From the NCBI GenBank assembly GCA_002633005.1, contig NMRA01000694.1:1-64000 (forward strand): a stretch of DNA of 64,000 bases. The letters are read 5' to 3'. Source of the stretch: Phoronis australis (Eukaryota; Animalia; Phoronida). The translations under genes were made by a program, and so were the position numbers. Positions 18,099-43,841 of the stretch are shown in pieces (position 1 is the stretch's first letter; each line of letters begins with the position of its first letter). The notes under the pieces were generated by a model. The model had not been told where the DNA came from, did not search any database, and saw only the letters and a list, made by a program, of their open reading frames with translations.

Positions 18099-21000
18099 GG
18101 GTGCGTTGTTTGGACCTTATGCATTAAAATGTTTGTCAGCTGTGGGCAACTCAAGTCAAGATCAAGAACTGTTACAGAAATTGGGAATTTGCCAAAAGCT
18201 GGACTTGAGTTTGTTGAACTTAAGGAGCGAGGAGGTTCCTGTAGGACTGACACTTTGTCAAAGCTTAGTGAAACTTGATATGTCAAGTAATGAACTGACT
18301 TCTATTCCAGATGGCATTTTTTCACTGTCGCATTTAGAATCATTGAATTTGTCTTTCAACGAGCTTACAGAAATACCTTCTGACATCAAAGCACTGGCAG
18401 AATTGAAAGATGTTAACCTGTCTCACAATGAGAGATTAAGAGACATTACTTCAGTCTGTCAATGTATCAAACTGCGAAGGTTAGAGATACATGACAACCA
18501 GTTAGTGAATATTCCAGTTGAAGTAGTGAATTTAATAGAGCTGGAAGAGATTGATTTATCAAATAATAAGATCAGAGACTTTGATTCACTGGTAACGTGT
18601 GCCAAACTGAGAAAGGTATCATTATGTCATATCAAGTTGGCGAGTATTCCAGCTGAAGTAGGGAAGCTGAGTGAATTGGAAGACGTTGATTTATCAGGTA
18701 ATCAGATCAGAGTCTTTGATTCACTGGTTACTTGTGCCAAACTGAGAAAGGTATCATTACACGATAAGTTGGAGAGTATTCCAGCCGAAGTAGGGAAGCT
18801 GAGTGAATTGGAAGAGGTTGATTTATCAGATAATCAGATCAGCGACTTTGATTCTCTGGTTACTTGTGCCAAACTGAGAAAGGTATCATTACAACATAAC
18901 AAGTTGGGGAGTATTCCAGCCGAAGTAGGGATGCTGAGTGAATTGGAAGAGGTTGATTTATCATTTAATCAGATCAGCGACTTTGATTCTCTGGTTACTT
19001 CTGCCAAACTGAGAGAGGTATCATTACACCATAACAAGTTGGAGAGTATTCCAGCCGAAGTAGGGAAGCTGAGTGAATTGGAAGAGGTTGGTTTATCATT
19101 TAATCAGATCAGCGACTTTGATTCTCTGGTTACTTGTGCCAAACTGAGAGGGGTATCATTACAACATAACAAGTTGGAGAGTATTCCAGCCGAAGTAGGG
19201 AAGCTGAGTGAATTGGAAGAGGTTGATTTATCATTTAATCAGATCAGAGACTTTGATTCACTGGTAAGTTGTGCCAAACTGAGAGTGGTGAGGCTGTGCA
19301 ATAATCTTATCAAAGTTATTCCACCCAGTATAGGGAATCTGAAGCAGCTTGAGCACCTTGACCTGTCCAATAATGAGATGGTAGGATTTGCTCGGTTGCC
19401 ATATAGTTTCCTTGATAAAACTGATGATACACACATTCAAATCTGTAGTCTCCCAGATGAAGTATGCCAGTTAAAGAAACTAAGATTTCTTGACTTAAAG
19501 AACAATTCATTACATCAACTTCCAATGCACATTGATCAGTGTCATTCTCTCCAGACGTTGAGGCTTGATGGTAATCCTTTAACAAGGCCACCTGTGGAAG
19601 TATGCAAAAGTGGTGTAAAGGCCATATTCCAGTATTTCAAGGATCTGCGACAAAGTGAAAGCAGGGTCAGAAAACAGCAGGTGGTCTTCCTGGGAGAGAC
19701 CGGAGCTGGTAAAACTAGCTTGGCTAGAACATTGGTAAACAATCGGTCATCTTTAGCTGATCCTGCGGACCGCACTCGTGTGCTTGATCGATACGTTTTG
19801 AAAGTAAGCAATGATTTACAATTACAGATTACGGACTTTGGTGGCCACCATGTTTATGAGTTGGCTCATACATTCTTTTTGACACCCGAGGTAATTGCTT
19901 CATTAGTAGTAGATTTGTCACGGTATAATAAGGACAACTACATGAATTTCGCAGGTCGGTGGCTGGGTTCATTAATGGCCATGTCGTGGAAGTCTACTGT
20001 GATTGTTGTTGGAACTCACAGTGATTGTTGTGCTGCAGAGGAGATTGAGAGAAAGAAGAAGGACTTATTGGGTCGCATCAAGGATCAATATCATCAGATG
20101 ATAACTGATGTTGAAAGGCAGCGGGAAAGAATCGCCAAGACAATAAATCGGTATGATGGCAGAACAGAGTTCGATTGTTATGTTCAATACCTTAAAAACA
20201 TTCGCAAGAGCAAGGAAACCCGCTTGGAATCACTGCGTTCAAACTTCCATTTAATTGACTACATCTTTGAGACAAGTGCACATTCTATGCATGGTATTCC
20301 TAAATTCAAGGATGAACTACTTGCAGTTTGTGACAAAAAGGCAGCAACATTGCCTCGTTCATGGCTGGCAATACAAGACATCATGGATGAACAGAGTGAT
20401 GAACCCTGCATCATGCTTGAGAAATTCCATGAAATTGTGCGTCGAGGTTTCACTGTTCGTGAGTTGCCTACAGATGATATTCAGCACACTGCTGCAGTGT
20501 TACTTTCGTATCAACATCAGTGTGGAAATTACTTATGGTTTGAAGATGATGATCAGCTTAAAGGGTATGTCTTCCATCGACCTGATTTTGTTGTGGAGTT
20601 TTTGAAAGGCATTTTTCATCACAACATGGATAGTCAACTGGATCAGAGTAATCAAGATTTTGACTTCAAGCATTTCACCAAGGAAAGTTTCAAGAAAGCA
20701 AAAAAAGATTTCTTGAAGTGTGGTCTCATTTCAACACACCTGCTGCGGTGTCTAGTGAAGCGGTATGTGAGTGATGAATCTTTGTTTGACATTTTGGTAC
20801 ATCTCTTGGAAAAGTTCTCTCTATGTTTCCGTGTTCGCGAAAAAGGTCATGGCAGCATTCTTTGTTTTCCATGGTTCCTCACCAATGACCAGCCCGACGA
20901 GATGCAAGTGAAGTGGCGAAAGAAGCCAGGCGAACAACAGTACCAGATCGAGTTTCATTTCTCAATGCAGTTTCCTGAAGCTTTCTTTGAGCTGGCCATT

Positions 21001-21394
21001 GTTCGGGTGCATCAGTGCTTTGGACCATTTCTGCAGGATGTTGTAACATGGAAAAGTGGTGTTTACTTCCGCAAAGATTACGACAAGATAAGAATGTCCA
21101 AAGTGCGAGAAGACAACGATGACATTCTACAACTTGCTGTGCGAGGAGAACAAGTTACTAAGTCGTGGCCTAGTTTGATGAAAGCATATCACGTAGTTGT
21201 TGGCCTTTTATTAAGGAAGTGGCCAGGAGCCTCATATGACATTTTCTATGTCTGCCCACATTGTCTATGCTCTGAAGTTGCTGATCCTACTCTGCATCCA
21301 GCCCAAGATCTGCATACGTTTCTGTCTGGTGTAGAATTCCTGCCATGTGACAACAGTGATGAAGGAATGGTGAAAGTGGATGAGGTTGTACCAG
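18099..21394 (+). CDS. Large exon encoding LRR-Roc-COR (ROCO, MFHAS1-like); first identified exon of the ROCO-protease fusion
   Basis: 1,101-codon ORF with ~19-20 LRRs. Roc motifs: P-loop GETGAGKTS (19693-19719), switch I RTRV, DFGGH, VGTHSD, ETSAH. Then COR (LPRSWL...YVFHRPDFVVEFLK...FPWFL...TWKSGV) and a CPHC...C tail. Acceptor ttttacag at 18091-18098; donor CCAG|gtaata (phase 1). Start exon not identified; the first in-frame ATG is 18280. Confidence 0.93.
18541..19290 (+). repeat. Coding tandem repeat: 5.5 units of 135 bp (45 aa = one 22-aa plus one 23-aa LRR)
   Basis: Units start at 18541, 18676, 18808 (the preceding unit is one codon shorter), 18943, 19078 and 19213. Near-identical at DNA level. 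Confidence 0.92.
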
Positions 21395-21873
21395 GTAATA
21401 CGCTTGTGTAGTCAGTATTCATATCAAATGTTCTCACTTAGTAAATCACAGTAAGTTATGGATATCATATGAGTTATAGGTATATGTCAGAAATAGTTAT
21501 GTTGAGCACAAGATCAAATTTCTGTTGTAAGTCGTTTTTCATAAAACAAAAATTAATCTCAGTAGTATAGCAGAGAAAGTGGACAAACTAAAAAAATTGG
21601 TTTTAATGAAGCTGCTAGATTGTCAAGCAACAAGATTTGGGTTGAGGGCTTACAAAAATCATTTGCTTCTCTGAGTTGTATGTATGTGTGATTTTTTAAG
21701 TGAGCTTGAGAAGTACCAAATTCTCCTTCTTAATTCTCAAGTTTTAATACTTTTGTGAAGGTGATGAAGTTGTAAATAACTTGTAGCCCGTTTTAGAAAT
21801 AAAACATGTGATCAACAAACTCATTCAAAGTTTGTGTGACAATGAATGTAATGTAATTGTAATTTGTGTTTAG

Positions 21874-21947
21874 GTCCATTTTCTTTACCAAGTGAAGTAG
21901 AGCTATTTGAGGCACAGAGAGGTTTTGACAACATTTGTCAGCAAAAG
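21874..21947 (+). CDS. ROCO-protease exon 2 (linker, GPFSLPSEVELFEAQRGFDNICQQK)
   Basis: Acceptor gtgtttag, donor AAG|gtaaga. Phase 1 in, phase 0 out; in frame with the preceding exon. Confidence 0.75.
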
Positions 21948-22479
21948 GTAAGAAGTAATTTAAGCTGCACTAGTTTAAGTGCTCTAGTTTCTATCCAATA
22001 CTCAGCTGCTTTAGGGTTGGTTTCCAACTCTAAGTTTCATGACTTGTAATGTTTGCTGCTTGTTGGATCTGTTTTTGTGTTCTCTTACCTAGCAGTGTCA
22101 CACTAAGTAGGTTTTGGCAACTATTTTGACATAAAATTAACTCCTGCATAATTATGTTCTTGAAGATGTGTTAGATTGCAATTTTACGTCTTTAACGTGC
22201 CTGTCCCTGTTCACATTACAAAGACGGTTATGTGTTTTCGTGAAATTACTGTTCTGTATTTTAAGTATCTGCATTCCCCAGTCCAAAATGTTTGTGAAAT
22301 AGTGTGGGAAGACATAATTCTGCAAACTTTTACCTTCACACCAATGTAACTCCTACTTATGTTGATGTTGTAGTCAACCACTTAAAAGTAAATATATAAT
22401 AACATCCCGTACCAAAATGAGGAGTTGAGTTTCAAGTGAGATTCAATTAAAGTTCAATAAAAAATTGAATTTCTATTGA

Positions 22480-22715
22480 ATATGTCTATTGAATGAAATG
22501 TCAATTGGCACTGCCCTCCAACCTGATTATGCTGTCAGTTGAGTGGCTATTGAACATCTATTGAATGGCAATTGAATTTCAGCACTTAGAGAGAATTTTT
22601 AGCTGTTCTGTATTGAATAGCTATTGAATTTCAGGACTTAGAAAAATTTTGGCAGTTCGGAATTGAATATTTATTGAATCAGGATGTCTTGAATTGAATG
22701 GCTATTGATTTTCAA
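22480..22715. repeat. Degenerate short tandem repeats of ctattgaat/attgaat
   Basis: More than 10 copies of attgaa(t) in ~230 bp; possibly a transposon sub-terminal array. Confidence 0.5.
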
Positions 22716-23938
22716 GACTTGGGGAATTTCTGGATGGTTTGATTTTACCAACAATGTTTGTTATAGACATAGGTTACCAAATTGGTTGTCAAGGTTACAT
22801 TTCTGGAAAGTGACCATTAAGTTTTTCAAACCCTTTCAAACGGTTTTGGTCCAGCATTAACTTTTCATAGATAGTGAAGAACTGCACAGATTAATTGCCG
22901 AGTTTTTGATTTCAACATTTTATTATGTCAATTTGATTGTTAAGGACCATAAGGTTTCATTCAGGAATGAGTAGCTTCAGTCTTGCTAACAAAATGGAAG
23001 TATTTTTCTGATTCAGCTGATCAAGGTTATGGAAGTTAAGTAGTGGAGCACAGATTTCAAAACGAGTTGAATATAGACCAAAACTTTCATGTGCATGTAA
23101 TTGCCAAAAGAACTGTCAGTTAACTGTATTTTGACCTAACATATTTCATTTACTTTAAATTTATTACTTGAAACTTAGGAACATATTTTTACGATTCTGT
23201 CTTAAAATTTTCACATCAGAGAAATGTACATGACATGATTGAGAGAAATGAATTTTTATTTTGGTTACATGAACTGCAACTAAATAATTGAGTTAGGCAG
23301 ATGTCTTGGATATTAGAGGTTTGTCATCGCCACCAGTCATTTACCTGTAGTGTCTCTGCAGTATGTTCTGACAATTACCATACTGGTTAAATATACAAGC
23401 TGTTGTGCTCACAATATTAAAAATTAAATTTCAGTCATGAGCTAATGAGATGCTTGATATTTTTGACTCTCACAAACAGTGCGATTCTATGGAAGGGGTT
23501 AGTACTCACTTTGGTTTATGAGTAGGCCCTATTTAGCGACATAAGCTAATTGGTGGAAGCCATTCAAACACAGTACTGCAGAGGTTAGGATTTTGATGTC
23601 TTTGATAAATGTATGTTGCTGCTGGATGATATTCCCATGGGCCAATTAAATAATGCAAAAAATTTAAATTGCATTTACAATGAAACAGCGTGTTCATAGA
23701 TGTAGGTATGGTGTAATGAGAAAGTTACAATGCATAGTCACTGATACCCATGCTTGAACATCAACTGAGTTTCAATTCCTGTCCCATTTGAATGTCCAGT
23801 GTACTTTTTCGTATGGGATGCTCCAGATTTCCAAATGTTTCTCACCACATACTGTATAAGTCTAAAGTATTCAGACAAAATGACTCGGAATTTTCCGCCA
23901 TTAGTACTTGAGTGGAAGTTGAATTCATCGTGAGAGTA

Positions 23939-25722
23939 CCGTAAACGTTCGGGTTAACGCCCTGGGCAGTTAAATTGGCAAACCCAAAAAATCGAGGGTG
24001 GGCGGTTAACCAGACATGGGCGCTTAAACGTGAAACTTCAAAAAATCCAGGGTGGGCGGTTAACCGAACATGGGCGCTTATTACGACAGGCAAGCGCCCT
24101 GGGCGGTTAATCTTACCTCGTGATCTAAGTACCCACACCACACACGTAGTCGTAGGCCTACTCGGAACGCGTAGCACTTTTCAAAGAGCGTTATCGTCAC
24201 GTCGCCACATGACGGGAAAAATGTCATAACAGCGGATGATCCTAACAAAGGTTATCATGCCCTCAGATTAGTTATTCACTATTAAATTTACAGAATTGCT
24301 GAGTAATAGCCCCGTGCCGTCCTGCGGTCTTGTTATTTAGCCCTGTAGTGTAGAGCGCAGACGACAAGTGACCACGCAGCCTCTACTTGGATTGCAACTA
24401 TTTCATCTTGCTAAAGTGCGCGCGTGCAAGCTTCACGTGTTGCAGAGGTCACAGCAGACATCAGATTTATGGTTACAGTCTCGTACTAGCTGCCAAGTTC
24501 ATAGTCAGAGAGCAGTTTTAAAATTGGTTGTAATAAAAGTTTGAAAACCTTGATTCAGATGTTTTTTTGTGTTTGGGATGTTTATAGTCAACACACCGTG
24601 ACTCAATGACATTTTCAGCGTATGGTTCTGTGGCTTGCTGTTTTATCTCGACTGCCCGGCATTGCTCACTTGCCGTTGCGCCAAACATGCTCGGCAAAGA
24701 AGTAGGCCCAAGACAAGAATCTGGGTTAAGCGGCCGTGTGCCACTCGTCAATCAAGAATGAAATTTCGAGCCACGGCATAAATATGTGATAAAACGCTAC
24801 AAAACAGCGATGTTTCAATTCATAAACGATCACCTTACCAAACTTCGTGGTGGAAAAACATTTATTTTTCATGCAAGATGTCCAGAATATCCTATTTATA
24901 TCACTTGCAATATCGCACTGCGGCACTGTTCGGTCCAGTTGTTAGCGCGCAATGTCTCAGTCGGCTGACAATCGTGACTTGGAAATGCCGTCAAGTAATA
25001 TAACGGCCTCTTTCAATATGCATCTCGTTTTTTATGGCCAAAGATAGCAGCGGGATTCAGCACGCGCGTAGGGCCTACGTGCGACTCACCTGTCAATCAC
25101 ATGTTGGTGTCAAGGTAACATGCACTCCAAAGTGTGGGAACTTGCGCGCGTGCACCACTACAAAGTCACACATCAAAAGAGAATAGCGACAGTCCTAAGT
25201 AACAGAAACGGGCGTGACTATATATTTTTAACCATTGTCTCATTTCTCTGGCCTGATTTTTTCGAATATATGTTTTATCAAGTGCACTGCAGACGAAAAC
25301 TCAGCGCGGCAGACAAAGTCGCTGAAACTTTGCAAACATGGGAAGAAAATAAAGTGACAAAAACGTTCAAGTATTATATTTTGAAGTGAGTCCATGACCC
25401 AAGACAATAACTCGTCACTTGTATAATTGCAATTCACATTGCCAAACCACCGTCTCGGAGGCCCGGCGTCGTTGCGCTCATTGTGATCATCGATCTTTTT
25501 CTAAAAGTCGGGGAATCGCGCATTTCCTTAGCACTGGGCGCTAAATCTTCATTCTTTAAAAGTCGGGGATGGGCGCTTAACCGAGAAGTGGGCGCTTAAC
25601 TGGAAATCTTCAAAAATCGCAGGGGGGCGCTTAACCGAGTAGTGGGCGGTTAAATCGAAAATCCACCTAAAGTAGGGGGTGGGCGGTTAACTGAGCATGG
25701 GCGTTAACCCGAACGTTTACGG
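23939..25722. mobile_element. Non-autonomous Tc1/mariner-pogo-like DNA element
   Basis: TA target duplication and a perfect TIR CCGTAAACGTTCGGGTTAACGCCC...GGGCGTTAACCCGAACGTTTACGG. Sub-terminal gggcggttaac/gggcgctta repeats at both ends; no transposase. Confidence 0.85.
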
Positions 25723-26099
25723 TAGTCTTTTCTCTTAACCAAGAATAAAGGAGTATGAACAGAAAGTTTGTAGGGTGGCCGTTAAGCAATTTTGTAATAA
25801 GAACTTTGCCGCTTTTATAATTATTACCATTTATGTTTTGTTGTTTACAGAATTAGTCGTCATTACGGGGAAACAGTATCTCATCTGATTAGTTTTTTGT
25901 CTTCCATTGAGTGTACAACTGATTTTTATATTTATATGTGGGTGCATATTGCTGTCATTATTGGTTGTCCGGGTGTCGATGTCCGCTACTGTATCTCTTA
26001 TTAACCCAGTGGAAAATTTTTGGCATGTGTGCTCATATGAAACTGACGACATGCTGATGAATTTTGGATTGATCTGACATGTCACCTTGTGACAATTTA

Positions 26100-27070
26100 A
26101 TTTTTCACGCTTTCCACTCTATCGTCCTAATTCTTGAATGCATTTTCATGGAACTTGGCAGATAGGTTTCCATTATGAAGAAAACGGCACCTTTCCATTT
26201 CCAGATGTCTTTGGTTATTCTGCACCACCTAGTGGTCATTTTTAAAACTTTTCAAGTCAGGTTTTTGATAAACCGCTTGAAGGATCATGAAAAATGAGGA
26301 GACTGCAATTGAGGTTTATTTTCGTAGATGTTCGACTATTCTTACTTCCTAGATCCTCTGTTTTTTTGCATCCTTAACCCTTTTCAAGATTGTTGTGAAA
26401 TTTGGCTGATGTGTTCCTGTGGACGACGAGTTTAAGTCCAATCTGTTGGTTGGTGTGCTGCCTAGTCGCAATTCTATTTTTACATTTTCTTGAGTTGTGT
26501 GTCTTTACAATTCATGGAAAATCTGATGTATTTGCATGAAACTTTACAAATAGGTTTCTATTTAAGGGTGCCAACAATGTCTTCTTAGTGGGCATTTTTA
26601 ACAGTTTTTAGTCCATTTTGGCCTCCGCCTATATATCTACCAAATTATTTGAAAAATCATTTTGGAAATTGGAAGATCTGTTTCTGATGAGAAGGCCGTG
26701 ACTGACATTAATATTCGGTTAGACTCGACTACTCAGGTGCCCGCTGGTGGCATTTTTTGCATGTGTGTACCGTGTCTCGTTAACCCTCTTTAGGATCATT
26801 GTCAAATTTGGTGGATGTGTTTCTATGGAGCTGACAACATATTATCAGACCCTTTGGACTGCCCCAGTGTGCCTCTAGTGGCAGTTTTATTTTTTTACAG
26901 TTCTCGCTATGGCTGTACCACCCTGTGGCAATTTGCCTTTTGTGTCTTCACAGTTCATTGGCAGTTGTGATTAAAATTAGGGAAACAAGTTAGTGTTATG
27001 GCGATAGCATCTTTGCATTTAAATGGATTTGATGTGTCCTGCACCACTTAATGGTCATTTTTATTGCCGA
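26100..27070 (+). repeat. Dispersed old repeat family with recurring ccacctagtgg/ctagtggca units (Helentron-like central repeats)
   Basis: Related degenerate units at ~31985-32600 (+), ~53330-54700 (-) and ~63150-64000 (-). Boundaries approximate. Confidence 0.45.
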
Positions 27071-28743
27071 TAAACAACTTAGAAGCACACTGCTTGCATT
27101 GCAGTCGTGAGTGCATGCATTTCAATTCTGTCTGTTGCTCAGCTCAGTTCTCTATCTCTGCTTACGAGGAGAGTTTTATGAATTACATATATGATTGGGC
27201 AGCCTTGTCATGCAGAAGTATATTTATTAGTACTTATTGCTGAACTGTTTTATCATCTGTGTTGTAGGTTAAGTGCTCCTCAGCAGAAGGCGGTACATTT
27301 CATGGTTCTTCGAAGATTTCCGGTACATCTACCTCACGTTTGTATTTATGCCTTTTTCTTTCAAATACTGTGTGGGAGGTTGTCTTCTTAACAATAAACT
27401 ATGGCTCATGGAGCGTTGCATTAGTTAATGCTAATTATAAGATCTCAGATTGTATGATATAAACCCTTAAGTTATCAAAAATAGGTATAGCTTCTTTAAA
27501 TTTCTCCCTATGTATATGTAAATATTATTGTAAAATTGATTACTTGATTATTTTGTAAACAAAATTTTGTGTTGGAGGGACACATAACTAAGTGTTAAAA
27601 TCTTGCATATTTTATTTAGAATCTCTGTTGTACCTATCATACTTGGTATTTAGCGCTGTTATTTGTGACTAAGTGTACACACTTACTATGTATATATGTT
27701 TTGTAAATATGCTTTTTTGCAAAAATAAAAGTTGAAAATTTTGAAAAGATCCCAGGTTTTGAAAGTTGAAACATACGCTGCTGTAACGTATCTTTGAGAC
27801 GTGCAATTTCAGTTTTCAACTTAATTTGTTAGAAGTATCAGTGTTGGTTATACTTTGTCCAAAAGTAGGTGGATACATAAGCTTGGCAATGTGATTGGAT
27901 CATACTCAGCGTTCCTCTATCTCTTCAAGCCAGTTTGGTGCCATTATGTCTCATACTACATGAATAGTGGCCTTAGTTGACGTAAAGCTCCCTTAGTTTT
28001 TTGATCTGTCACTGCTTCATTTTGGTCTGAATGTTCTTTAATTCCTAATCTAACAGTCAATTTTCATCATACTTAACTATATGTCGGTGCCAAATTTCAG
28101 ATGCTGTAAGTTTGTCAAATCCATCGTTGTTAGGCAAAAGAAAATCTGCCGTTGTCATGGACACAGAAGCTGGTATTATTCCACCTAAGGTTTGTAAAAA
28201 TGAAATTATGAAGTTGTCAGCTAGTGAAAATAAACCAAGTGACTTGAGTGACTAACAGAATATTTATTGTACGTTTAACAACTGTGTAATCCCAGCCGTG
28301 AGTTTAAGCCAGACTACGATAAGCAGCAACTACCCTGTAGTCATTTTAGAAGACCCAACTTCATGTTAAATTATGCTTTCCTTCATATAATATCATATTG
28401 TATAACAAGGAGTGGTTGTTAACGACTCAAAGGGAGATAATATGGAGACAATTCGCTGTAATGTGTTCTTGTGCATAGTAAATGGTGCAAGCTGAATTGG
28501 TTCCATGATTTTCAGTAGTTGTCACTTTTTGTTGGTTATACACTTTATATTCCTTCAAAGCACGACAATAAAGTCATTTTCTGATTCTTTTTGTATAACC
28601 TTTCTTGCATATGAAGTGAGCCAGTTCATTGCTGCAAGTGAAGCAGAGAAATAGAACCCATTTATATTTTTTGTCTTTCTGACTTATAAAAAATGAAGAG
28701 TTTGCATTACTCCCCCAAACATTAAAATCTTTTATTATTTCAG

Positions 28744-28792
28744 ATTCCTGAGGGACTGGCCTCAACCAGCACTGATCCTTCCATGGACACAG
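28744..28792 (+). CDS. ROCO-protease exon 3 (linker, IPEGLASTSTDPSMDT)
   Basis: Acceptor tttattatttcag, donor CAG|gtatgt. Phase 0 in and phase 1 out, which bridges exons 2 and 4 exactly. Confidence 0.7.
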
Positions 28793-28879
28793 GTATGTAG
28801 TCTTATTCTATTCTTTAGTTGTTATGACCTTTTGTTATGTCTTGCATAATGTCAAGGTTGAAAGGCTGCTCAAGTGTTT

Positions 28880-31770: not shown

Positions 31771-34700
31771 CTTTGACATTAGGGTACCAGAACTTATTAA
31801 GTTGGAGTTGGATTTTATATCGGTGGTGAGTTTATGTTTGCGAATGATTTAGGTGCCAACTTTGATTGTCGTGGTAGAATCTCAACTCTCAAAAAATTGA
31901 CAATTTGTGGTCAAAACTAATTAGTGGTGTGGGTATTAGTAGTTACACAAAAGAGTCATTCTTACATTCAAAGTTATCTTCATTATTTTATTTTTCACCC
32001 ACATAATTGTACGTGGTCGCACATTGCCGTCATCTCTGTGGCAGTGTCCAGTGTCCAGCATCCGCTGCTGTATTTTCTAAACCCCTACAGGATGATGAGA
32101 TTTGGCAGACATGTTCCTATGAAGCTGATGACGAATGACGTCAAATTTCGGAGCTCTCCGACCACAGCAGGTGTGCTTCCTAGTGGCAATTATAGTTTTT
32201 TACGCTTACCTCTGTATCTTCGGAAGTTGTCAACAAATTTTCATAAAAGTTGGCAGTTATGCATGTATTAGTGAGATGACACTATCCTCTGTTTTCGAAT
32301 GGATTCAACTGGTGGCCATTTTTGCTGTTTTCGAGTCGTTTTTTGGCGACCACCCTTCTATCAATCAAACTGCTCTGAAAATTGGCATATAATTATGTTC
32401 TTACTATGAGGTGGGTGGTAGATGATGATTTTTCCGACGACTTTAACTACTGTGGCGCCTCATTGTGGCAGTTTCGTTTGTTTTTGCGCCCATGGCTGTA
32501 TCTCCTAAATGCTCTACACGATCTTTATTGAATGTTACTGTTGTATTTATTGGAAGTTGAAAGCAGAGTACGACGACTTTCGAATGGATAACGACCTTAA
32601 TTACAAGTCTTTGTATTAATAGCCAAATATCTTTAAACTATAGATTTCATCTCGGTAAAAACATATATTTTCTGAAAGTAGAATTCCTTTAAAATTTCGT
32701 CTGGCTTTTTACCGATTTGCATAAAATTGGGTCACATTACCATGTCTTTTCAGTAAAACGGATTGAAAAAGAAACAACAATATCAATAAGATGATAAAAT
32801 TTTGTTTGATTTCATTGTTCAAGATGAGATCTCAAAAACGTTAGTTTCTGAATTATTGTTTCGTTTTGCTGAACTTCGGAAGTTTTATTGCAAGTCATTA
32901 AAGTCCTATTGTTTGATAACATCTCATGCAAAAGTGCGACACTTCCTAACAGCATTTTGGACAACAGTGGCTTGTCATCTGAAAGTTACTATGAATCCAG
33001 TGATCCATTTGGTGGATATGAAGTGTGAACGTTTAGCTACATTTTGGAATTTTTACAGGGTCCTACAAAACTTTAAGGTGCATTAAATTAAAATTTGATG
33101 ATTATACATGTGTCATCAACATATTGGCTTTATAATGTTTAAGTCATTTTATAGCTGTTTTGAAATTTATAGATTTTACTCCACGTGTTTCACTTTCGAT
33201 TGTCTCCTGTTGCCGGATACTAGAGCAGGTTTTCTTAAAGAGACATGAGTGTAAACACGCGTATATGTGGTTAGACAGAGACACAAACAATACAACAATA
33301 CATCTGTGAACTGGATATTGGCATGCATGGTTCTATGACTTGTCACAAGATTACAGGTGGCAGAATGAGCCTGATGACCCTACTCTGTGGGTTAAATTTC
33401 CCGGTTTTGGTGATCGGGAACCGCAGTATCCTTATCTGTTGGAAAGTGATAGTGAGGGGAAAAAGTTGGCAAACCGATGTTTACATAGTCCACCGCTCTC
33501 ATTGTCTCCATTCATATGACAAGCTCATGTAATCCGGGATTAAAGTTGTTAATGTACAGTGTGCCTGACACTTGCTTTTAAACATTATCTGCTACTTACT
33601 TTCAACAAATGTCGTAAAGATGAGTTTTTTTCAAAACACGATCACCAAACAAATTTTGAATTAATAAAAACGGTCGACTTTCTGAGAAATTAGGCTTAAC
33701 TTTCATTTGTCGGTGTGGGTGTAAGGCCTGGAGGCCTGCTCCAACTGGTTTTGAATTAATCCACTTAATACAGTTATTAAATACTAGCAAGTTTGTATAT
33801 ACATGTGTTTACTCAAGTTGGAAAATGATATCTAAGCTGACAACTTAACGAACAAGTTGAACATGTCAGGCTTGTTGTTTTATTACACTCTTTCACAGTG
33901 ACGTATAGGTGGCGCTGTGTCAGAGGATAGTCATTTTATGTGCTGAAAGCAATTTGTCTGGAAATAATCTAAGGCAAAGTTTGATTTACTCCTGTTGTAA
34001 CCAGTCAGTTACAACTGTGTTCTGTGATTAAAGACAGCTTTAAATGAGGCTTCAGTTGTTGTGAAACAATGACTGAATTTATCGGAGATGGCACTCAAGT
34101 TTTTAGCATCAAATTGCAAGTTAACTTTTTGTCAGGTCTGTTGCATGACTCTCAAGACGGGCATTTGGTCACGAAGCTGTACATGTTGTGAATAGGAGTT
34201 TTAGTCATTTTTGGAACCACTCTGACTTATTCAGGCTTTGAATTAATATCTGAATTATTTTGCTTGTTTTTGTGCTGCATATCACTGAAATATACCACTG
34301 TTAAGGATGGATAGTACTTGATATTGTGCTATGTACCACTGTTGAGGATGGAGCGTACTTGATATTGTGCTATGTACCACTGTTAAGGATGGATAGTACT
34401 TGATATTGTGCTATGTACCACTGTTGAGGACGGAGCGTACTTGATATTGTGCTTTATACCACTGTTAAGGATGGAGAGTACTTGATATTGTGCTATATAC
34501 CACTGTTAAGGATGGAGAGTACTTGATGTTGTGCTATGTACCACTGTTGAGGATGGAGCGTACTTGATATTGTGCTAGATACCACTGTTGAGGATGGAGA
34601 GTACTTGATATTGTGATATATACCACTGTTGATAATGGAGAGTAGTTGATATTGTGCTATATACCACTGTTGAGGATGGAGGGTACTTGATATTGTGCTA

Positions 34701-34775
34701 TATACCACTGATGAGGATGGAGAGTACTTGATATTGTGCTATATACCACAGATTGTTAAGGATGGAAAGTAATGG

Positions 34776-36961
34776 CAGGGCTCCACATAACGAGCTGCAG
34801 GTCGCATATTTGCGACCTGAAATTTGGAAATGCGAGCTGAGATTTTTGTCAGCTCGTATCAAGTCGCAAAATGCGACCTGGAATTTCCAACGAATGCGAG
34901 CTGAGTTTTTACACTTCTCAACAGATACCTGGCAAATACAAAGCAGCTCTTGTTTATCGGACCGTTATTTGGTCGCTGCCAAATCCAAGTTCAAAACAAC
35001 ACTAAGGGGGACAGCCCTCCCGATGACTTGTAAGCAAGTCGTGTGAACATGGGATATGCAGTATCGATCTTCGACGCGTATCATTGGCTAACTCTTTCGG
35101 CCACTTATGTAAATTCCCGGATTCGCCGAAGAAAGTTTCGGGCCACTGCTTAACACGTGATAAAACTTCACAAAACAACAGTGTTTCTACTAATTCTTAA
35201 GCGATTAACGTACCAAACTTTGTGGTGGACAAAAATGTTTATTTTTCACATAAGATGTCCTTATTATATGTACCAAATATCCACGACATTATCCCTGATA
35301 CCGCACTGCGGCACCGTTAGCGCGCAAGCGGTCCCGGAACACAATCGTGACTTAGACTGAGATGTGCTTCTGCTTTTTATCGTATTAAGACAGCCAAAGT
35401 GAAAATGACAACCTTATTAATCGCCAAACGACGGTCACGTCTTTACTTTCAGTTGCCAAGAAATTCTCAAACCCCTTACTTGTTTCTGGGGCTACGTGCG
35501 CGAAATATGATTTGTCTTTCACCCGTTCCTTGCCAACGTAAAGTGTAGGCCTACTCCAGCAATTCAAGTGCGTGAACTCACGCGCGCGCTCCACTTCAAA
35601 GAACAGCGACTGCCCTAAATGAAGAGTATACCGGCTTGGCTCTGGTTTATTTGAAAATAAACTCAGATTCCCAGCGGTTATAAAAGACCCGATGTACCGG
35701 ACCCGGCGATATAACCCCGAGAACTGACTATTCCTGCTCTGATGTTTCCCGAGGTCGATGTTCTGTAAATCCTGTATTCTATGCTCGTAGCCAGTTATTG
35801 CAACTAAACTGGCACTAGATGCGAAATTGTGGTTCAAGTTAGCGAACTTTTCATTCTTCTCTTTATACACCCCCCTCCCCCCGGCAACTTTTCGCTCCCC
35901 GAACCACCGTCGCCGTAAAATGTTCAGACTCCTATAGAAACAACATTGTTCCGGCTGAAGCGGGCAGTTAAAAACAAAATCATTCGGTTAGCGAAAAAGG
36001 GTACAATGTAGGTGGTAACGATATCCAGAAGTCGCCCCTACGAGATGGAGTTTGCCTCGCAAAATCGTATTATTATAATGTTTCTTACCATTGCAGCGTT
36101 TTAATATCTTATTACCGCAAACACTGAGGTTAACGACTATGCTCACGCACAAGCTTACTGCCTACCTTTAAAGTGTTTCATAATAAGCGCTCACTGATCT
36201 ATTAAAAGTCCCCCCTTAATTTTTTTTGAGAATTTCCAATGAAGCGCCCACAGTTCAAGCTAGCGCCCATCATAGCGCACTACAAACGACTGCGTGTGAT
36301 TTAAAATTGTCACACAGCTTATATGGTGTGTCACTTTCATTTTACACAACTTCACAGTTTTCAAAAACGTCTTTTCACAATATGTAAAAACCAAATCCTG
36401 CCTTTGTTTGATACCTCGGAAAGAAAGTTAACACTAGTGACATGCGTGTCGTTTTGTGACTGACCTATTTTTCCCGTACTTGGAAGGTATTGCGGAGCAA
36501 ACTCGCCATTACCCGAGTTAGTTTGAATCATTAACTACTTTGATGACAACCAGTAGCAGGCCAGATCTAAAAATATCCCGGATACTTCAACAGGCATTTT
36601 CTCCCTTTTCACATCGCAAGTTTAGCAACTCGAATGCACAAGTCAGTTAGAGAGCACTGATTCAACTTTCCCGTCGGCAACTTGCCTTGCGCTCTAGAGT
36701 CTTTCAAATGCGGTCGTGAAGAACAGTAAGGCCGTACCTGCATGAATGAAGTCAATTTTGAGATCCGAAATTTGTGAGTATTTAACGCTGCAAGTAAGAG
36801 CAATTTCTCGATGATCTAAAATTCTATTTTGGCGCGTAAAAATTGCGGGAAAATTTTGCGACCTGGCATTTACGAATGCGAGCTGGATTTTGAAAATGCG
36901 ACCTGGGATTTTGGCTAGGTCGCAAAATGCGACCTGGCGATTTTTATAACGTCGAGCCCTG
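34776..36961. mobile_element. Non-autonomous hAT-like element with 5-bp TSD
   Basis: CAGGGCTC...GAGCCCTG termini, aatgg duplicated on both sides, and tgcgacctg/tgcgagctg sub-terminal repeats at both ends. Confidence 0.8.
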
Positions 36962-37070
36962 AATGGATGTGCTATATACCACTGTTAAGGCTGGAGAGTT
37001 GTTGATATTGTGCTAGATACCACTGTTGAGGATGGAGAGTAGTTGATATTGTGGTACATACCACTGTTAA

Positions 37071-37930
37071 AGGGGAAGGCAATCTTTTTTTAGCAAAAAC
37101 AAGGTTCATTGATTATCCCAGACATATCTTTTAATTTAATTATAGCTTTTCACAATTTAATTACGTAGTAATTCGTCCTCTACTACGGAAGTGACGTTTT
37201 TGTTAGGCAAGAATTTTGCGCCAATTTCTTTTCATATAGTCTGACTGTGAAAGCTGGTGAGTCAGTCATGATTCTACCTCAGTTGTGACAAGTTCGGTCG
37301 TACTTTGCTTTTATTTACGTGTCGGACAACATGCCACACTGTTGCTGCGTACCAAGATGTACTCATTATCATCCAGAGCCTGTAAGCAGCCTGCTGCGAT
37401 GTTGATTAGTGGACGAGTGAAGAGGACAGTTTGTCGTCCAATGAACGGTGAGCGAAACATTGATAAGTTCATTGTGGACATGTCTAAAGTATTGGAGCTA
37501 TTTAGGAGGTGCCATGTGTGTGGCGAGGGAGTCACACGGCGGGATGTAAGCAGTTTGTGTGCTCAGGTAACCATCCCGTGGGAGTGTGTCGTGGGACACT
37601 CGGGCAAGTGGGACAGTTGTTTCTCTGTCCGCGAGATGATAATGAGTACATCCTTGCATGCAGCAACAGTGTGGCATGTTGACTGACTCGTAAACAAAAG
37701 CAAAAGGCGACCGAATTTATCACAATCCGAGGTAGAGCGATGTCTGACTCTGTAACTCACAGCCGGTCTATATGAAAAGAAATTGTCGCGAAATTCTTGC
37801 CTCCCAAAACGCCACTTCCGGAGTAGCAGACGAGTAATTGTTTAAATTATAAAAAGCTGTAGTTAACTGAAAATATGACTGGGATAATCAACGAACCTTA
37901 TTTTTGCTAAAAATGACATGAAAAAAGGTT
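37071..37930 (+). mobile_element. Internally deleted Kolobok-like element (fold-back)
   Basis: TTAA|AGG left end and ~300-bp imperfect inverted arms (37085-37380 vs 37640-37912). The core encodes FIVDMSKVLELFRRCHVC...WECVVGH..WDS, a Cys/His motif I recall from Kolobok transposases. Right terminus lost. Confidence 0.65.
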
Positions 37931-38377
37931 GGATGGAGAGTAGTTAAAATTGTGCTATATACCACTGTTAAGGATGGAGAGTTCTTGATATTGCGCTATA
38001 TACTACTGTTGAGGAAGGAGAGTTCTTGATATTGTGCTATATACCACTGTTGAGGAAGGAAAGTTCTTGATATTGTGCTATATACCACTGTTGAGGATGG
38101 AGAGTAGTTGATATTGTGCTATATACCACTGTTAAGAATGGAGAGTAGTTGATATTGTGCTATATACCACTGTTGAGGAAGGAGAGTACTTGATATTGTG
38201 CTATGTACCACTGTTAAAGATGGAGAGTAGTTGATATTTTGCTATATACCACTGTTGAGGAAGGAGAGTACTTGATATTGTGCTATATACCACGACTGTT
38301 AATGTAGGAGAGTTCTTGATGTTGTGCTATACTGTTGAGGATGGAAAGTACTAAATTAATGTGCTTTTCTGTTTCAG

Positions 38378-38682
38378 CTGAGGTTTCACATCGGCAGACC
38401 TTGCGATCCTGCCTATTCAATTTTGACCGACCCTACCAGCGTGGAGATGAGAGAGACTACAAAGATTTTCAATTTACCCTACACCCCGTAGTTGCCTATG
38501 ACCAGGAACTAGACTACGCCATTTTGGAGATGGACGTTGACAGTGCAAACCCACCGCCAGAACCACTAACTATGTTTAAGAAGATAGTTGGTCATGAGAA
38601 GATCTTCTTTGCAGGTCATCCAAGTGGACAGGCGAAGTTGGTGGACCCTGGGTGTAAAGTTGTCCATAAGACTGTGGCAGAG
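38378..38682 (+). CDS. ROCO-protease exon 5: catalytic Asp (ELDYAILEM) and FAGHPSGQAKLVDPGC
   Basis: Acceptor gcttttctgtttcag, phase 1 in. Donor GAG|gtttgt, phase 0 (an alternative phase-0 donor follows 38715). Resembles FAM111A LDYAVLKL and IIGHPYGEKKQIDAC; Asp codon 38512-38514. Confidence 0.88.
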
Positions 38683-39114
38683 GTTTGTGGCAACAGTGAA
38701 TGTACAGCAAACTGGGTGAATGAACTGAAAAGTTGTTAATGAAACCAAATTGCTCTATTTTCTACGATGCTTTACTTGAATTGAGTCTTCAATTTGTATA
38801 TTCTGATTTACTGTTTGGGTTACTAATTTCAATCTTGTTAACAAACAACATATAATATCAATAGAAAAGTACTAAACATTGTGTTATTGGATAACTTTTG
38901 TAATCATTTTATTCAGACTACAGAACATGACCTCGTAAAGACTTAATTGACAAAATGAGCACATTTTAAAAAAATAATGTGATTTGAAACGATAATTAGT
39001 TATTTTTTAATTGAATGTCAGTATTGAAAGTTTTGACATTTTCTAAACTTACACACATACACTTTGGTAGTGTGACACACTCGGAATCTTTCCATTACAT
39101 GGTTGTCACTTCCA

Positions 39115-42100
39115 CTACCCTTATGAAAAAGCTTCAGGAAATTCTAATCCCGAAAGCCAGTGAGAATCTCACTGGATTCCAGTTAGATTCCAGTGAGAAT
39201 CTAACTAATTAAGATGCCATTTAAATTAGTGAGAAAAAAATTCTCACTCTAGTGAGAATACAGTGATATTCCAGTTAGAATTCAGTGAGAATCTAACTAA
39301 TTTGCATAGCATTCCCACTCAGTGAGAATTTGTCTTACTGAAATTCTCACTCAATAGGAATGNNNNNNNNNNNNNNNNNNNNNNNNNNNNNNNNNNNNNN
39401 NNNNNNNNNNNNNNNNNNNNNNNNNNNNNNNNNNNNNNNNNNNNNNNNNNNNNNNNNNNNNNNNNNNNNNNNNNNNNNNNNNNNNNNNNNNNNNNNNNNN
39501 NNNNNNNNNNNNNNNNNNNNNNNNNNNNNNNNNNNNNNNNNNNNNNNNNNNNNNNNNNNNNNNNNNNNNNNNNNNNNNNNNNNNNNNNNNNNNNNNNNNN
39601 NNNNNNNNNNNNNNNNNNNNNNNNNNNNNNTTTTACTGTAATATTTGAAAAGAGGAGCGAAAACAAATATGAGTACAACTTTGAATTTTTCAAATCGGCC
39701 CAGGATAAGAGATTTTGCAACACAGCAACACTCACGATTACTTTCATTCGGCGCGCACTAATACAAAAATATAGGACCCAAGTTATTTAGATTTTGGAAC
39801 ACATGCATTGCAATATTCAAAATACGTTTATTATGAATCTTACAAGCTGTAAAACGACGTTGTTAATTTCATTGTGTTCATTCATTGTCATCCATCAAAT
39901 CGGCAATTTCCGAGATGTGATCTGCGGCGTGCGCGTATGTGTACAAAACACGTGATTGTTATGTTCCTGAAGTACGAAAATTAAGAAGTCTTTAACATGC
40001 CGTTATTATTGACAGGGACACGATAAAACGAATTTGGATTTTGACTTGATACAGCGATCTGACTGACCACTGCGTCATTGTCTCCGTTAGACCCAGAAAT
40101 TTCACACAGCGCTGGTAGTTCATTTCGTCCCCAACATGTAGGTCGAGCCTTTGACTATTAATACTCCACGGCAGAGCTAACGACAGTCGGCCTGTGCACA
40201 CAAAATCTGTGAGTTAACCAGCACTCACCTTGCATGTTACAGCCGTTTTAGTGAAAAACAATCTAGTAAACGCAATTTTCTTGCATAATCCTCCACCTTT
40301 TGTAACAAAAAAGTCTATCGTCGATGACCCGCACACGCACGCTCACTCACTCTCATACGCAGACGACCTTCAAAACAAACGTCAACAAACAACAACATGT
40401 GTGTTCATCCAGAGATTTTTCTCGTGTTGTGGAGTACGATGTAGCGCACATTTGGACTTAATCGCAATTAATCTGGACTCCACATGAACTTTAAAAATTG
40501 TAAAACATCAGGAAGATTTCAGGTAATTTGTTGAGTCGAAACTATATTTTTATTCAAGAGTACAAGTTTTCCTATTGACGATCGCGATTCAGCGACGCAT
40601 CAGTCGGCAAGTTTTCNNNNNNNNNNNNNNNNNNNNNNNNNNNNNNNNNNNNNNNNNNNNNNNNNNNNNNNNNNNNNNNNNNNNNNNNNNNNNNNNNNNN
40701 NNNNNNNNNNNNNNNNNNNNNNNNNNNNNNNNNNNNNNNNNNNNNNNNNNNNNNNNNNNNNNNNNNNNNNNNNNNNNNNNNNNNNNNNNNNNNNNNNNNN
40801 NNNNNNNNNNNNNNNNNNNNNNNNNNNNNNNNNNNNNNNNNNNNNNNNNNNNNNNNNNNNNNNNNNNNNNNNNNNNNNNNNNNNNNNNNNNNNNNNNNNN
40901 NNNNNNNNNNNNNNNNNNNNNNNNNNNNNNNNNNNNNNNNNNNNNNNNNNNNNNNNNNNNNNNNNNNNNNNNNNNNNNNNNNNNNNNNNNNNNNNNNNNN
41001 NNNNNNNNNNNNNNNNNNNNNNNNNNNNNNNNNNNNNNNNNNNNNNNNNNNNNNNNNNNNNNNNNNNNNNNNNNNNNNNNNNNNNNNNNNNNNNNNNNNN
41101 AGGAAGATTTCAGGTAATTTGTTGAGTCGAAACTATATTTTTATTCAAGAGTACAAGTTTTCCTATTAACGATCGCGATTCAGCGACGCATCAGTCGGCA
41201 AGTTTTCGCCCTGTGATGAGCACAATTTTTTGAAAAATCATCGTAATTTAACAACGGAAGTTGATAGCAATGCACCAAAATTTTGTTGAAAGGCTGTCAT
41301 AGGCTACAAATACGTCACAGAGCGTAAATTTGATGAATCCTTGCTTCCGATTTTACCGTACCCGTTTGGGAAACCGGGATTCAACTGCCGTAGGCTCACT
41401 ACAATAAGCGTCCCCTCCCCGTGAAATGAATTTTTCTAAGCGTTTGAGCCATTACAGCATACAGCTTTCCACCAAGGCTAGGTGATGCAAGACATTATTC
41501 TTTGTTGCATTATACATGTAGTAACTGGTCTTGGCTAATTATCATTTTATGGCCTGGTCATCCATTAAGCCAAAAGTAGTTCCAGAGGTGGCTTATCAGC
41601 CAATTATTCACGCATGCTGACTCACAATAGAAGCCTGATAAGAGTGAAGGTGGATAAATGCGGTGTTCCTACAGTTTCTTGTTTTAGTGGATGTGTTCAC
41701 AACGTGGAACTTTGACTAAGGATACAATTTAATAATTGCTAATTGTGAAATATAGCAGACATAAAATAATAACTATAACGCCTTTGGTGAATCAGCAAAA
41801 TACTGAAAACTCAGCTGTCAACATGCACAGAATGAAGACATCAGCCTAATACTGGTGCTTCATGCACTCTACTACATGTATGAAATGTACTAACCTTAAG
41901 CTTATTAACACGCAAAATCAGTCCAGGATCACCTGTGGTTGACTTGCAGACAAACTGTTCAGTAATTTCAGAATATTTGTGAGAAAAACATCAACAATCT
42001 TCAAGCTATTTCTCCAACTGCTCATTCCTGACGCCATTTTAGTTTGAATTCAGAAATCTGGTTCAACTGAAATTTCTACAGTTACAGCCAATCAGGGTGT

Positions 42101-43370
42101 TTGTTTATCTCAGATTCTCACTGAATTCTCACTCCAATTTTGGCAAGTCCAAATTCTCACTCAATTCTCACTCAGATTTTTCCTAAGTCTGAAATTCTCA
42201 CTGATTCTCACTCAGAATTTTTCTAAGACNNNNNNNNNNNNNNNNNNNNNNNNNNNNNNNNNNNNNNNNNNNNNNNNNNNNNNNNNNNNNNNNNNNNNNN
42301 NNNNNNNNNNNNNNNNNNNNNNNNNNNNNNNNNNNNNNNNNNNNNNNNNNNNNNNNNNNNNNNNNNNNNNNNNNNNNNNNNNNNNNNNNNNNNNNNNNNN
42401 NNNNNNNNNNNNNNNNNNNNNNNNNNNNNNNNNNNNNNNNNNNNNNNNNNNNNNNNNNNNNNNNNNNNNNNNNNNNNNNNNNNNNNNNNNNNNNNNNNNN
42501 NNNNNNNNNNNNNNNNNNNNNNNNNNNNNNNNNNNNNNNNNNNNNNNNNNNNNNNNNNNNNNNNNNNNNNNNNNNNNNNNNNNNNNNNNNNNNNNNNNNN
42601 NNNNNNNNNNNNNNNNNNNNNNNNNNNNNNNNNNNNNNNNNNNNNNNNNNNNNNNNNNNNNNNNNNNNNNNNNNNNNNNNNNNNNNNNNNNNNNNNNNNN
42701 NNNNNNNNNNNNNNNNNNNNNNNNNNNNNNNNNNNNNNNNNNNNNNNNNNNNNNNNTGCATGTGTTCCAAAATCTAAATAACTTGGGTCCTATATTTTTG
42801 TATTAGTGCGCGCCGAATGAAAGTAATCGTGAGTGTTGCTGTGTTGCAAAATCTCTTATCCTGGGCCGATTTGAAAAATTCAAAGTTGTACTCATATTTG
42901 TTTTCGCTCCTCTTTTCAAATATTACAGTAAAAACTACGTAAAACTCTCACCATAAAAAGTACAGTCTGCTAGCTAGATTGTAATCAGCTGATCATATCC
43001 GCATGAGCGAAGCCAATTATCCTCGCTCGTGACTCGATGACTAGAGCAGCCTGGCGGCATCCCTTTGATCGTGAGCCGAGTGCGACTCAGCCAAGGTGGA
43101 TAAATATGGTCTAGTTCAATTTTCCATACCCCGCCGTTTACCTTAACCACCGGGGTTAGAACCAATTTTATTTAGTGGGAATGTTCATAGCATGTCACTC
43201 AATTCTCACTCAGATTTTTCCTAAGTCTGAAATTCTCACTGATTCTCACTGTTACATAACATTTTCTCACTCATTCTCAATGACTGCCCCTGTTGTTCAA
43301 TTCCCACTGGGTTCTCACTGGCATTTCTAACTATGAATTGGTGATTTAGTGAGAATCTAACTGGAATCTA
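39115..43370. mobile_element. Gap-ridden DNA element(s) with inverted sub-terminal arrays (agtgagaat / attctcact), EnSpm/CACTA-like
   Basis: Repeated gtgagaat at 39160-39355 and attctcact at 42115-42229 and 43195-43325. Segment 39631-39810 recurs inverted at 42757-42935. Class assignment tentative. Confidence 0.4.
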
Positions 43371-43502
43371 AGTATCAATGCAGAAATATATGTCTGAATC
43401 GAAATGTACAGTGTAGATACAGCCTAAATGTGGGCATATTGGATACATGTCACAGGTCAAATTTGACTAAAAACAAATCGATGGTGATGTCATTTTTTAC
43501 AG

Positions 43503-43841
43503 TACCATGAAGCTGTCAACTGGTCCTTGGTGAACTTTAGAGTCGATGCATTCCCACGTTTTTTGGACCCCCGCAGGGTTCTTTATCACGTGAGTGAGAA
43601 ACTTATCGGAGGAAGTTCTGGATGTCCAGGACTGGTCAGCGATGGACAAGACAACGCTTGTGTAGCTGTGGTCAACACCTTCCAATTTCCTGATGTGCCT
43701 CAGCACTTAGTGGCTGCTGTCCATATCCCTGACAAATATATTGTGGAACAGGGTGTTCGCATCGAAGCCATCTATCGTGATTTGCATGACCAAAATGCTC
43801 TTCTTTGTGACGACATATTTCCACATGGAATGCCCACCTGA
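43503..43841 (+). CDS. ROCO-protease last exon: catalytic Ser (IGGSSGCPG) and FAM111-like C-terminus
   Basis: Acceptor cattttttacag, phase 0. GxSG Ser codon 43617-43619. IVEQGVRIEAIYRDLHDQNALLCDDIF parallels the FAM111A C-terminal helix (IIEFG...I..DI.......EEVF). TGA at 43839-43841. Confidence 0.88.
   Translation, partial: YHEAVNWSLVNFRVDAFPRFLDPRRVLYHVSEKLIGGSSGCPGLVSDGQDNACVAVVNTFQFPDVPQHLVAAVHIPDKYIVEQGVRIEAIYRDLHDQNALLCDDIFPHGMPT

Follow-up and report, generated by a model that had tools for sequence, protein, structure and literature searches.

Does one gene of the phoronid Phoronis australis join a ROCO GTPase to a serine protease, and what could such a protein do? The question is raised by a stretch of 64,000 nucleotides (assembly GCA_002633005.1, contig NMRA01000694.1, positions 1 to 64,000 of the forward strand; hereafter the window), in which a long exon for leucine-rich repeats (LRRs), a Roc GTPase domain and a COR domain is followed by exons for a protease resembling FAM111A and FAM111B. 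It was found that the ROCO exon is transcribed and joined by spliced reads to four linker exons, and the last of these is predicted with high confidence to splice into the protease exons, which would make one ROCO-protease chain. The full reading put forward here is an expressed MFHAS1-like ROCO spliced to a FAM111-like protease, in which ligand-driven ROCO dimers would pair the tethered proteases, and it is given a probability of about 0.4.

The ROCO exon and its transcripts

The long coding exon (18099 to 21394, on the forward strand as are all exons of the model) encodes residues 1-1098 and was delimited by Pfam matches, splice phases and RNA. Its open frame (18076-21408) contains LRR, Roc (E 2.4e-11), COR-A (E 4.6e-11) and COR-B (E 2.3e-10) matches above the Pfam gathering scores. 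The exon starts at a splice acceptor, its phase-1 donor coincides with the end of COR-B and a read-through stop lies at 21409-21411. The Roc domain (19681 to 20283), placed by motif positions, alignment with 20 relatives and predicted structure, possesses intact motifs G1 (19693), G2 with its Thr (19774), G3 as DFGG (19834), G4 (20011) and G5 (20272), which agree with active-type relatives in the alignment, and a long helical hairpin is predicted between G4 and G5 (about 20035-20244). COR-A and COR-B (20353 to 21393) were assigned by Pfam and by a CxHC motif that is common to animal MFHAS1-like relatives. A structure model of Roc-COR, built from an alignment including 17 relatives, reached a pLDDT of 82.4 and a pTM of 0.80 (a single-sequence fold with a pLDDT of 38.7 was discarded), and its best Foldseek matches were LRRK1, LRRK2 and the C. 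tepidum Roco with E values from 3e-19 to 2e-16. By Pfam and by fold Roc is immediately followed by COR, the arrangement by which ROCO GTPases are recognized. A match to nSTAND3 covers a P-loop fragment only (E 0.066); the NTPase is a Roc GTPase and not a STAND (NACHT or NB-ARC) ATPase. An LRR-Roc-COR exon had been claimed for this place in an initial annotation of the window, and an intact exon is borne out by Pfam, by all five GTPase motifs and by transcription.

The LRRs, at least 15 by a strict pattern, extend from 18196 to 19629 (Pfam and pattern scan), and NCBIfam matches were LRR-only and far below the cut-offs. Within them a 135-bp coding unit of two LRRs is repeated about 5.5 times (18542 to 19284; Tandem Repeats Finder and unit comparison). 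Units 1-5 are 87-97% identical at the DNA level, and the array is evidently a recent expansion.

Among 7,990 proteins scored, 16 Roc-COR relatives were found at E 0.001, with 26-31% identity and E values down to 1e-81. All seven named animal proteins among them are called MFHAS1 or MFHAS1 homologue by at least one source. A quick tree comprised 21 rows, among them a bacterial outgroup but no vertebrate MFHAS1, LRRK or DAPK; in it the window protein is a long separate branch that has no sister with strong support and belongs to no starred set. The ROCO part is accordingly described as MFHAS1-like, i.e., LRR-Roc-COR without a kinase, and orthology to vertebrate MFHAS1 is unsupported in the quick tree.

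Transcription was followed with three stranded raw runs (X2, X3 and X4) and one contig set aligned to 19300-28870 at 82% likeness; the raw runs were also aligned to 21100-28870 at 91% likeness, and 18-19% of each was used. The ROCO exon is transcribed from the forward strand, with a depth over 19300-21219 of 33-41 in X4 and 2-10 in X2 and X3; X4 is about 5-7 times deeper there than the other two at similar read numbers. Four consecutive joints with GT..AG borders follow, with reads given for X4, X3 and X2: 21394 to 21874 (8, 2, 0), 21947 to 27268 (5, 3, 1), 27337 to 28101 (27, 3, 7) and 28189 to 28744 (18, 3, 7), in total 10, 9, 37 and 28 reads over the three runs. They define linker exon 1 (21874 to 21947, 74 nt, phase 1 to 0, both junctions in reads), linker exon 2 (27268 to 27337, 70 nt, phase 0 to 1) and linker exon 3 (28101 to 28189, 89 nt, phase 1 to 0), both placed by joints and frame, and linker exon 4 (28744 to 28792, 49 nt, phase 0 to 1), whose acceptor joint is found in reads. 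The first of these junctions had been anticipated. A direct junction from 21947 to 28744, which had been expected as well, is absent among the joints listed (15 of 19 at 91% likeness, 15 of 36 at 82%), and reads pass instead through linker exons 2 and 3, which together contribute 159 nt, begin and end in phase 0 and leave the frame unbroken. The two linker exons and the chain of about 1,420 residues originally described were therefore revised: both exons exist, two more lie between them and the model comprises 1,476 residues. It was also considered that transcripts might end at the stop at 21411, and this is not what most reads show, as in X4 the depth drops from 33-41 on the ROCO exon to 1.6 in intron 1, and four joints lead onward.

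The resulting linker after COR is 109 residues long and consists to 50% of Ser, Thr, Pro, Gly and Ala, compared with 23% in Roc-COR. Linker exon 3 encodes a basic KRK patch (28136), which we take to be a candidate resembling a nuclear localization signal. Some reads carry no other difference from the window sequence, and near the end of COR-B about two thirds of the reads come from a copy some 10% apart; the divergent reads indicate expression of two or more alleles or paralogues. Of 80 read differences listed, 43 are exonic, of which 28 are non-synonymous, 15 are synonymous and none creates a stop; one linker exon shows a 6-nt deletion that leaves the frame intact. A poly(A) signal at 22446-22461 and a forward-strand depth of about 2 in X4 past linker exon 1 are a weak sign of a minor, protease-less transcript ending there.

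In intron 2, the stretch from 23780 to 26000 is a repeat, abundantly transcribed on both strands with internal direct and inverted joints, and probably belongs to a transposon family. An alternative first exon at 26020-27300 was considered and dropped, as the forward-strand depth seen at 82% likeness is mostly gone at 91%. A forward-strand peak within 26820-27079 (depth about 30 at 26874-26884) is present in all three raw runs and persists at 91% without a listed joint; it could be a repeat of another transcript or an alternative exon.

From the linker into the protease exons

Splicing of linker exon 4 into the protease exons, and thereby a single ROCO-protease chain, is predicted with high confidence. 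Read evidence for splicing reaches donor 28792: at 91% likeness X2, X3 and X4 agree in a longest matched side of 51 letters at the last joint, consistent with reads exiting at this donor. The three following junctions (28792 to 30990, 31199 to 38378 and 38682 to 43503) are very likely, as judged by splice signals, frame and end-to-end homology. By a simple score 30990 is the best acceptor among those in 28830-31010, it is in frame and its phase matches donor 28792; no poly(A) signal was found in 28793-29460. The exon that it opens starts at a phase-1 acceptor and encodes no Met ahead of the catalytic region. The joined protease aligns over residues 28-277 (250 residues) to two FAM111-like relatives, the divergent mussel protein P0027 and the protein P0017, at E 4.9e-29 and is ungapped at both exon joins when donor 38682 is used. 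This donor scored best with a homologue profile (90.0 bits), compared with 83.0 bits for 38694 and 81.5 bits for 38700; a profile of fish proteins plus P0017 left the three unseparated.

The corrected gene model contains at least eight coding exons in collinear order. The six exons proposed initially, with AG acceptors, GT donors and phases 1, 0, 1, 1, 0, are all retained and join without a stop. The frame of the model opens at acceptor 18099 and no Met precedes the first LRR, which shows that a 5′ exon is absent from the model. It was sought upstream by donor scans, by tblastn with relatives and by Pfam on reading frames, with nothing convincing found. At the other end, the first AATAAA or ATTAAA within 43842-49480 occurs at 49479. 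A GTGAGT resembling a donor is found 18 nt past the stop, and together these suggest a non-coding last exon after 43841.

Protease exon 1 (30990 to 31199) encodes an N-terminal helix with Gln1216 and Ala1220, Tyr1200 (31010) and the catalytic His1252 (31166), and was identified by a Trypsin_2 match (E 0.0042), alignments and its acceptor score. Protease exon 2 (38378 to 38682) encodes the catalytic Asp1308 (38512) and a GHP-x-G motif (38614) and was placed by homology, its donor being predicted. Protease exon 3 (43503 to 43841), placed by homology and frame, encodes the catalytic Ser1403 (43617) and the Glu of a VEQG motif (43746) and ends with the stop at 43839-43841. The triad is intact at exactly the positions first given for it, and the Gly before the Ser and the equivalent of FAM111A Glu573 are kept. 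Of the Pfam domains that had been expected, LRR, Roc, COR-A and COR-B were recovered, Trypsin_2 on the His exon; the Ser exon alone gave no match in Pfam or the Protein Data Bank (PDB). No signal or membrane segment was detected in the modelled part, which excludes the N-terminal exon.

The family assignment leans on the Asp exon and the joined domain. Among solved structures the Asp exon matched FAM111A best (8s9l, E 0.023), followed by a plant Deg protease (0.14); among 1.84 billion representative proteins it gave five matches: four proteins from fish, of which two are named FAM111A, and the unnamed fragment P0017. The joined protease reached 73.0 bits on a profile of the four fish relatives against 2.0 for the best of 200 shuffles, a comparison that is partly circular for the Asp exon, with which these relatives were found. 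The His exon alone gave weak HtrA-type matches first (E 0.07-0.2), a structure-atlas search with the Asp exon returned only generic trypsin-like clusters (best 0.92), and P0017 and P0027 had no PDB match at E 0.01 and 1. By these sequence and structure searches the protease appears FAM111-like and not a FAM111A or FAM111B orthologue. A Tyr-Gly pair (1200-1201) aligns, with a 3-residue offset, with a fish Phe-Gly at the Phe334 cleavage position, and Tyr1200 is predicted to be an autocleavage-like site.

The nearest full-length relative of the protease, P0027 from Mytilus galloprovincialis, has an unrelated N-terminal region without a Pfam match, in which we take a motif to mark a candidate TRADD-N-like domain. 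A FAM111-like protease behind a different N-terminus may be a further invertebrate immune architecture. Amphioxus proteins with TRADD-N or Death plus Trypsin and listed without Roc appear in supplement 4 of PMC8195603, and together with P0027 they suggest that trypsin domains serve as modular C-terminal parts in invertebrates.

A proposed proximity-driven protease and its alternatives

What the protein might do is approached best from the place that the protease occupies. Beyond COR-B, nine of 20 relatives, all animal, extend by 106-135 residues, ten end within 6-41 residues and a bacterial one continues for 141. Among the 16 Roc-COR relatives three end in CARD, five in Death and none in Trypsin_2, and the tails with CARD or Death start where the long exon of the window ends; three residues beyond the COR-B end column the truncated entry P0003 parts from P0026, a full-length member of the same cluster. 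In this alignment the protease sits in the slot that is filled by Death or CARD domains in mollusc and brachiopod relatives. This fits a common intron after COR-B with cassette exchange of effectors, where the intron positions of relatives are deduced from protein ends. Death and CARD domains act through induced proximity. The shared slot makes a role in defence or cell death likely, and the 109-residue flexible linker makes proximity more plausible than allosteric coupling.

The protein would be a single-chain intracellular sensor with proteolysis as its predicted output. At rest, by analogy to the C. tepidum Roco and MFHAS1, it may be a GTP-loaded monomer with its protease off. The C. tepidum Roco is described as a dimer when empty or GDP-bound and as a monomer with GTP (PMC5714945), and MFHAS1 as binding GTP, hydrolysing it very slowly and shifting its oligomeric state with the nucleotide (PMC6337361). 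The expanded LRRs would then bind a foreign or damage ligand, cluster the protein and favour hydrolysis and a COR-based dimer, through which two flexibly tethered proteases would reach a higher local concentration, and their pairing may order the oxyanion holes as in FAM111A. For FAM111A an alpha-1 dimer with a Kd of about 4.8 nM is reported to be required for substrate cleavage and not for autocleavage (PMC10920703, from which the roles of V347, V351, His556, 557-559 and Glu573 are also taken). The weaker-looking dimer helix of the window protein could make its proteases dependent on the ROCO scaffold. Targets of the active enzyme would be disordered linkers in proteins of host or invader, and cleavage after Tyr1200 may set the enzyme free. 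A stronger form of the proposal is doubtful: that invertebrate MFHAS1-like ROCOs are the GTPase counterpart of NLRs, with an effector cassette at a phase-1 intron common to them after COR-B (molluscs having Death, Lingula CARD and the window gene a FAM111-like protease), and that the ROCO dimer replaces the lost dimer helix so that ligand directly fires the protease.

Several observations weigh against the proximity proposal. The three raw RNA runs all stem from one study, most reads on linker exons at 27268-28189 carry shared differences and hence belong to a divergent copy, and the protease-entry junction from 28792 to 30990 lies beyond the aligned RNA region. A fused homologue was sought without success: none of 25 candidates was a fusion when the Asp exon was compared with longer proteins, none of the 16 Roc-COR relatives among the 7,990 scored had Trypsin_2, none of the five matches of the Asp exon among the 1.84 billion proteins had Roc or COR, and a three-row protease alignment, in which the Ser exon was misplaced, gave one match among 6,445 longer proteins, again without Roc or COR. 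The concave face of the LRRs is variable in five of ten columns against six of 35 others in the four inner units (p 0.048), this subset being one of two cuts tried; over all six units the figures are 7/10 against 17/35, which is not significant (p 0.30), so that the variation points only weakly to diversification of the binding surface. In the protease, the dimer-helix valines V347 and V351 of FAM111A correspond to Gln1216 and Ala1220 (ungapped mapping from a conserved Ser-Val), and it may therefore not need or form a FAM111A-type dimer. The S1-lining residues His556-Gly559 are replaced by Asn-Thr-Phe-Gln and the loop preceding the catalytic Ser has a 2-residue insert, which makes activity and specificity uncertain. 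The initial annotation had proposed both a FAM111-like protease and a dimer switch. The first holds by sequence, although the valines and part of the S1 pocket differ; for the second, the Roc-COR motifs are kept but the dimer dependence of FAM111A is not directly transferable. Ligand, substrate and immune role of a ROCO-protease are proposals only.

Rather unlikely, and yet the strongest alternative, is that the protein acts as a scaffold, in which the LRRs hold the substrate (a host complex, or a protein of a virus or microbe) and a constitutively competent or autoactivated protease reaches its target on the long tether. The composition of the linker would uncouple the domains, and the dimer-helix valines are lost here and also not kept in the Mytilus relative P0027. 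From FAM111A it is reported that autocleavage is dimer-independent (PMC10920703) and that a viral protein is degraded directly (PMC13245274), both in line with a scaffold. Against a scaffold, the five GTPase motifs and both COR subdomains are kept, and the slot holds induced-proximity domains in the relatives.

It is improbable that the protease is a decoy, weak or dead, serving as bait for pathogen inhibitors of FAM111-type proteases, with signalling through the ROCO part or an N-terminal domain of the missing 5′ exon. FAM111A is reportedly targeted by SV40 large T. The changes in the S1 pocket and oxyanion loop would suit a decoy, as would a 5′ exon that lies outside the gene model. Poxvirus SPI-1 is also described to target FAM111A (PMC13245274). 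However, the catalytic triad is intact, as are the Gly preceding its Ser and the residue equivalent to Glu573, and no Pfam domain was found in the 29 plus two forward-strand frames scanned upstream. An Asn-Thr pair at the S1 position is, moreover, normal in HtrA-type proteases.

That there is no fusion, the ROCO transcript leaving 28792 for another exon and a linker tail while the protease exons are a separate gene or relic, is distinctly improbable. The junction into 30990 is unseen, with an RNA alignment that ended at 28870, and protein searches found no fused homologue. Read depth on the other linker exons is 2-3 times that on linker exon 1, and most letters there are those of a divergent copy, so that further transcripts would share these exons; the poly(A) signal at 22446-22461 with the low depth behind it permits a minor protease-less form. 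On the other hand, the His exon has a phase-1 acceptor fitting donor 28792 and no Met before its catalytic region, neither a better acceptor nor a poly(A) signal was found between them in the intervals given above, and the eight exons share strand and order. Least credible is a by-product of recent, lineage-specific exon shuffling under relaxed selection, expressed without coupled function: 28 of the 43 listed exon differences are non-synonymous, no fused relatives were found and the locus is rich in repeats and assembly gaps, but the 1,476 codons and the 43 differences are free of stops and frameshifts, Roc-COR has retained all motifs at only about 30% identity to the closest relatives known, and the linker exons are common to divergent copies.

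The window has 37% GC, 2,750 N, tandem arrays and transposon remnants, and the introns of the gene measure 0.5-7.2 kb. Upstream of the gene lies a hAT transposase remnant on the reverse strand (Dimer_Tnp_hAT, E 8.6e-08, 6292-7044). A weak RNase H match on the forward strand in the intron after linker exon 4 (28979-29401, E 0.00065, below the cut-off) is likely a retroelement scrap. Intronic and downstream minisatellites occupy 29465-30638, 31331-31722, 34290-34749, 37931-38293 and 47459-48351, with units of 54 bp (22 copies), 61 bp (6 copies), 41 bp (11 and 9 copies) and about 67 bp (10 copies); the 41-bp unit is found at three places within one intron. An inverted pair (9805-11061 and 58007-59275, 95% identity) lies at some distance on either side of the gene; a direct pair (51287-53215 and 60530-62431, 87% identity) lies downstream.

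Comparison with known systems

If the proximity-driven ROCO-protease is real, animals independently built a ROCO receptor with protease output from an antiviral-type FAM111 enzyme. It would back animal LRR-Roc-COR proteins as NLR-like immune sensors with swappable effectors, so far argued for bacteria and algae, and extend FAM111 biology past DNA replication and poxvirus restriction, the latter being reported for FAM111A in PMC13245274. It would also offer a peptide-cleavage readout for the debate in the LRRK2 field on which form of a Roco is active, the GTP monomer or the GDP dimer.

The initial annotation had held the architecture to be new. In the full-text literature searched, outside of which most subscription papers lie, neither a ROCO-FAM111 fusion nor an animal ROCO-protease was found, but a trypsin fold on LRR-Roc-COR is already known in bacteria and in SAR organisms. 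The architecture class is thus already known, and its animal MFHAS1-like, FAM111-like form appears undescribed. The text of PMC11378527 speaks of up to forty domain combinations in animals, which may include a protease, and Aplysia ROCOs with TIR or Death are described in PMC9334734.

MFHAS1 (MASL1) and the MFHAS1-like ROCOs of Lingula and molluscs share with the window protein LRRs followed by Roc-COR, the absence of a kinase, motifs G1-G5 and the CxHC motif. Vertebrate MFHAS1 is described as LRR and Roc-COR only (PMC6337361), while the window gene adds a long linker and a protease; the invertebrate relatives carry CARD (3/16) or Death (5/16) where the window gene has the protease. FAM111A and FAM111B share the PA-clan trypsin fold, the His-Asp-Ser triad and, with the 3-residue offset, an aromatic-Gly pair at the Phe334 position. 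Their N-terminal PIP box and UBL domains are absent here, where a low-complexity linker and Roc-COR precede the protease, and V347/V351 and His556-Gly559 are not kept.

The group-3 ROCOs of brown algae and some ROCOs of other SAR organisms have the same domain order and the same protease clan, LRR-Roc-COR with an IPR009003 peptidase (PMC11378527). Unlike them, both halves of the window protein have animal nearest relatives, the nearest named ones being from a brachiopod, molluscs and fish. As there is also no named SAR protein among the 16 Roc-COR matches, the animal fusion is likely independent of SAR group 3. In bacteria, AP-GTPase conflict systems with LRR-Roc-COR are said to include trypsin among at least 24 C-terminal effectors (Kaur et al., 2021; PMC8195603). 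Their variable C-terminal effector slot is similar, and they are read as counter-invader receptors; among the 17 places with "Trypsin" in file 6 of PMC8195603, the sole protein with Roc-COR and trypsin is VWA-led and comes from Verrucomicrobium. These systems are bacterial and intronless, in contrast to a spliced animal gene. Finally, NLR or inflammasome receptors and LRRK1/LRRK2 likewise combine sensor repeats, a nucleotide switch and an effector in one chain, and the Roc-COR fold matches LRRK1/2. The window protein differs from them in having neither a STAND ATPase nor a kinase, and its output would be a serine protease.

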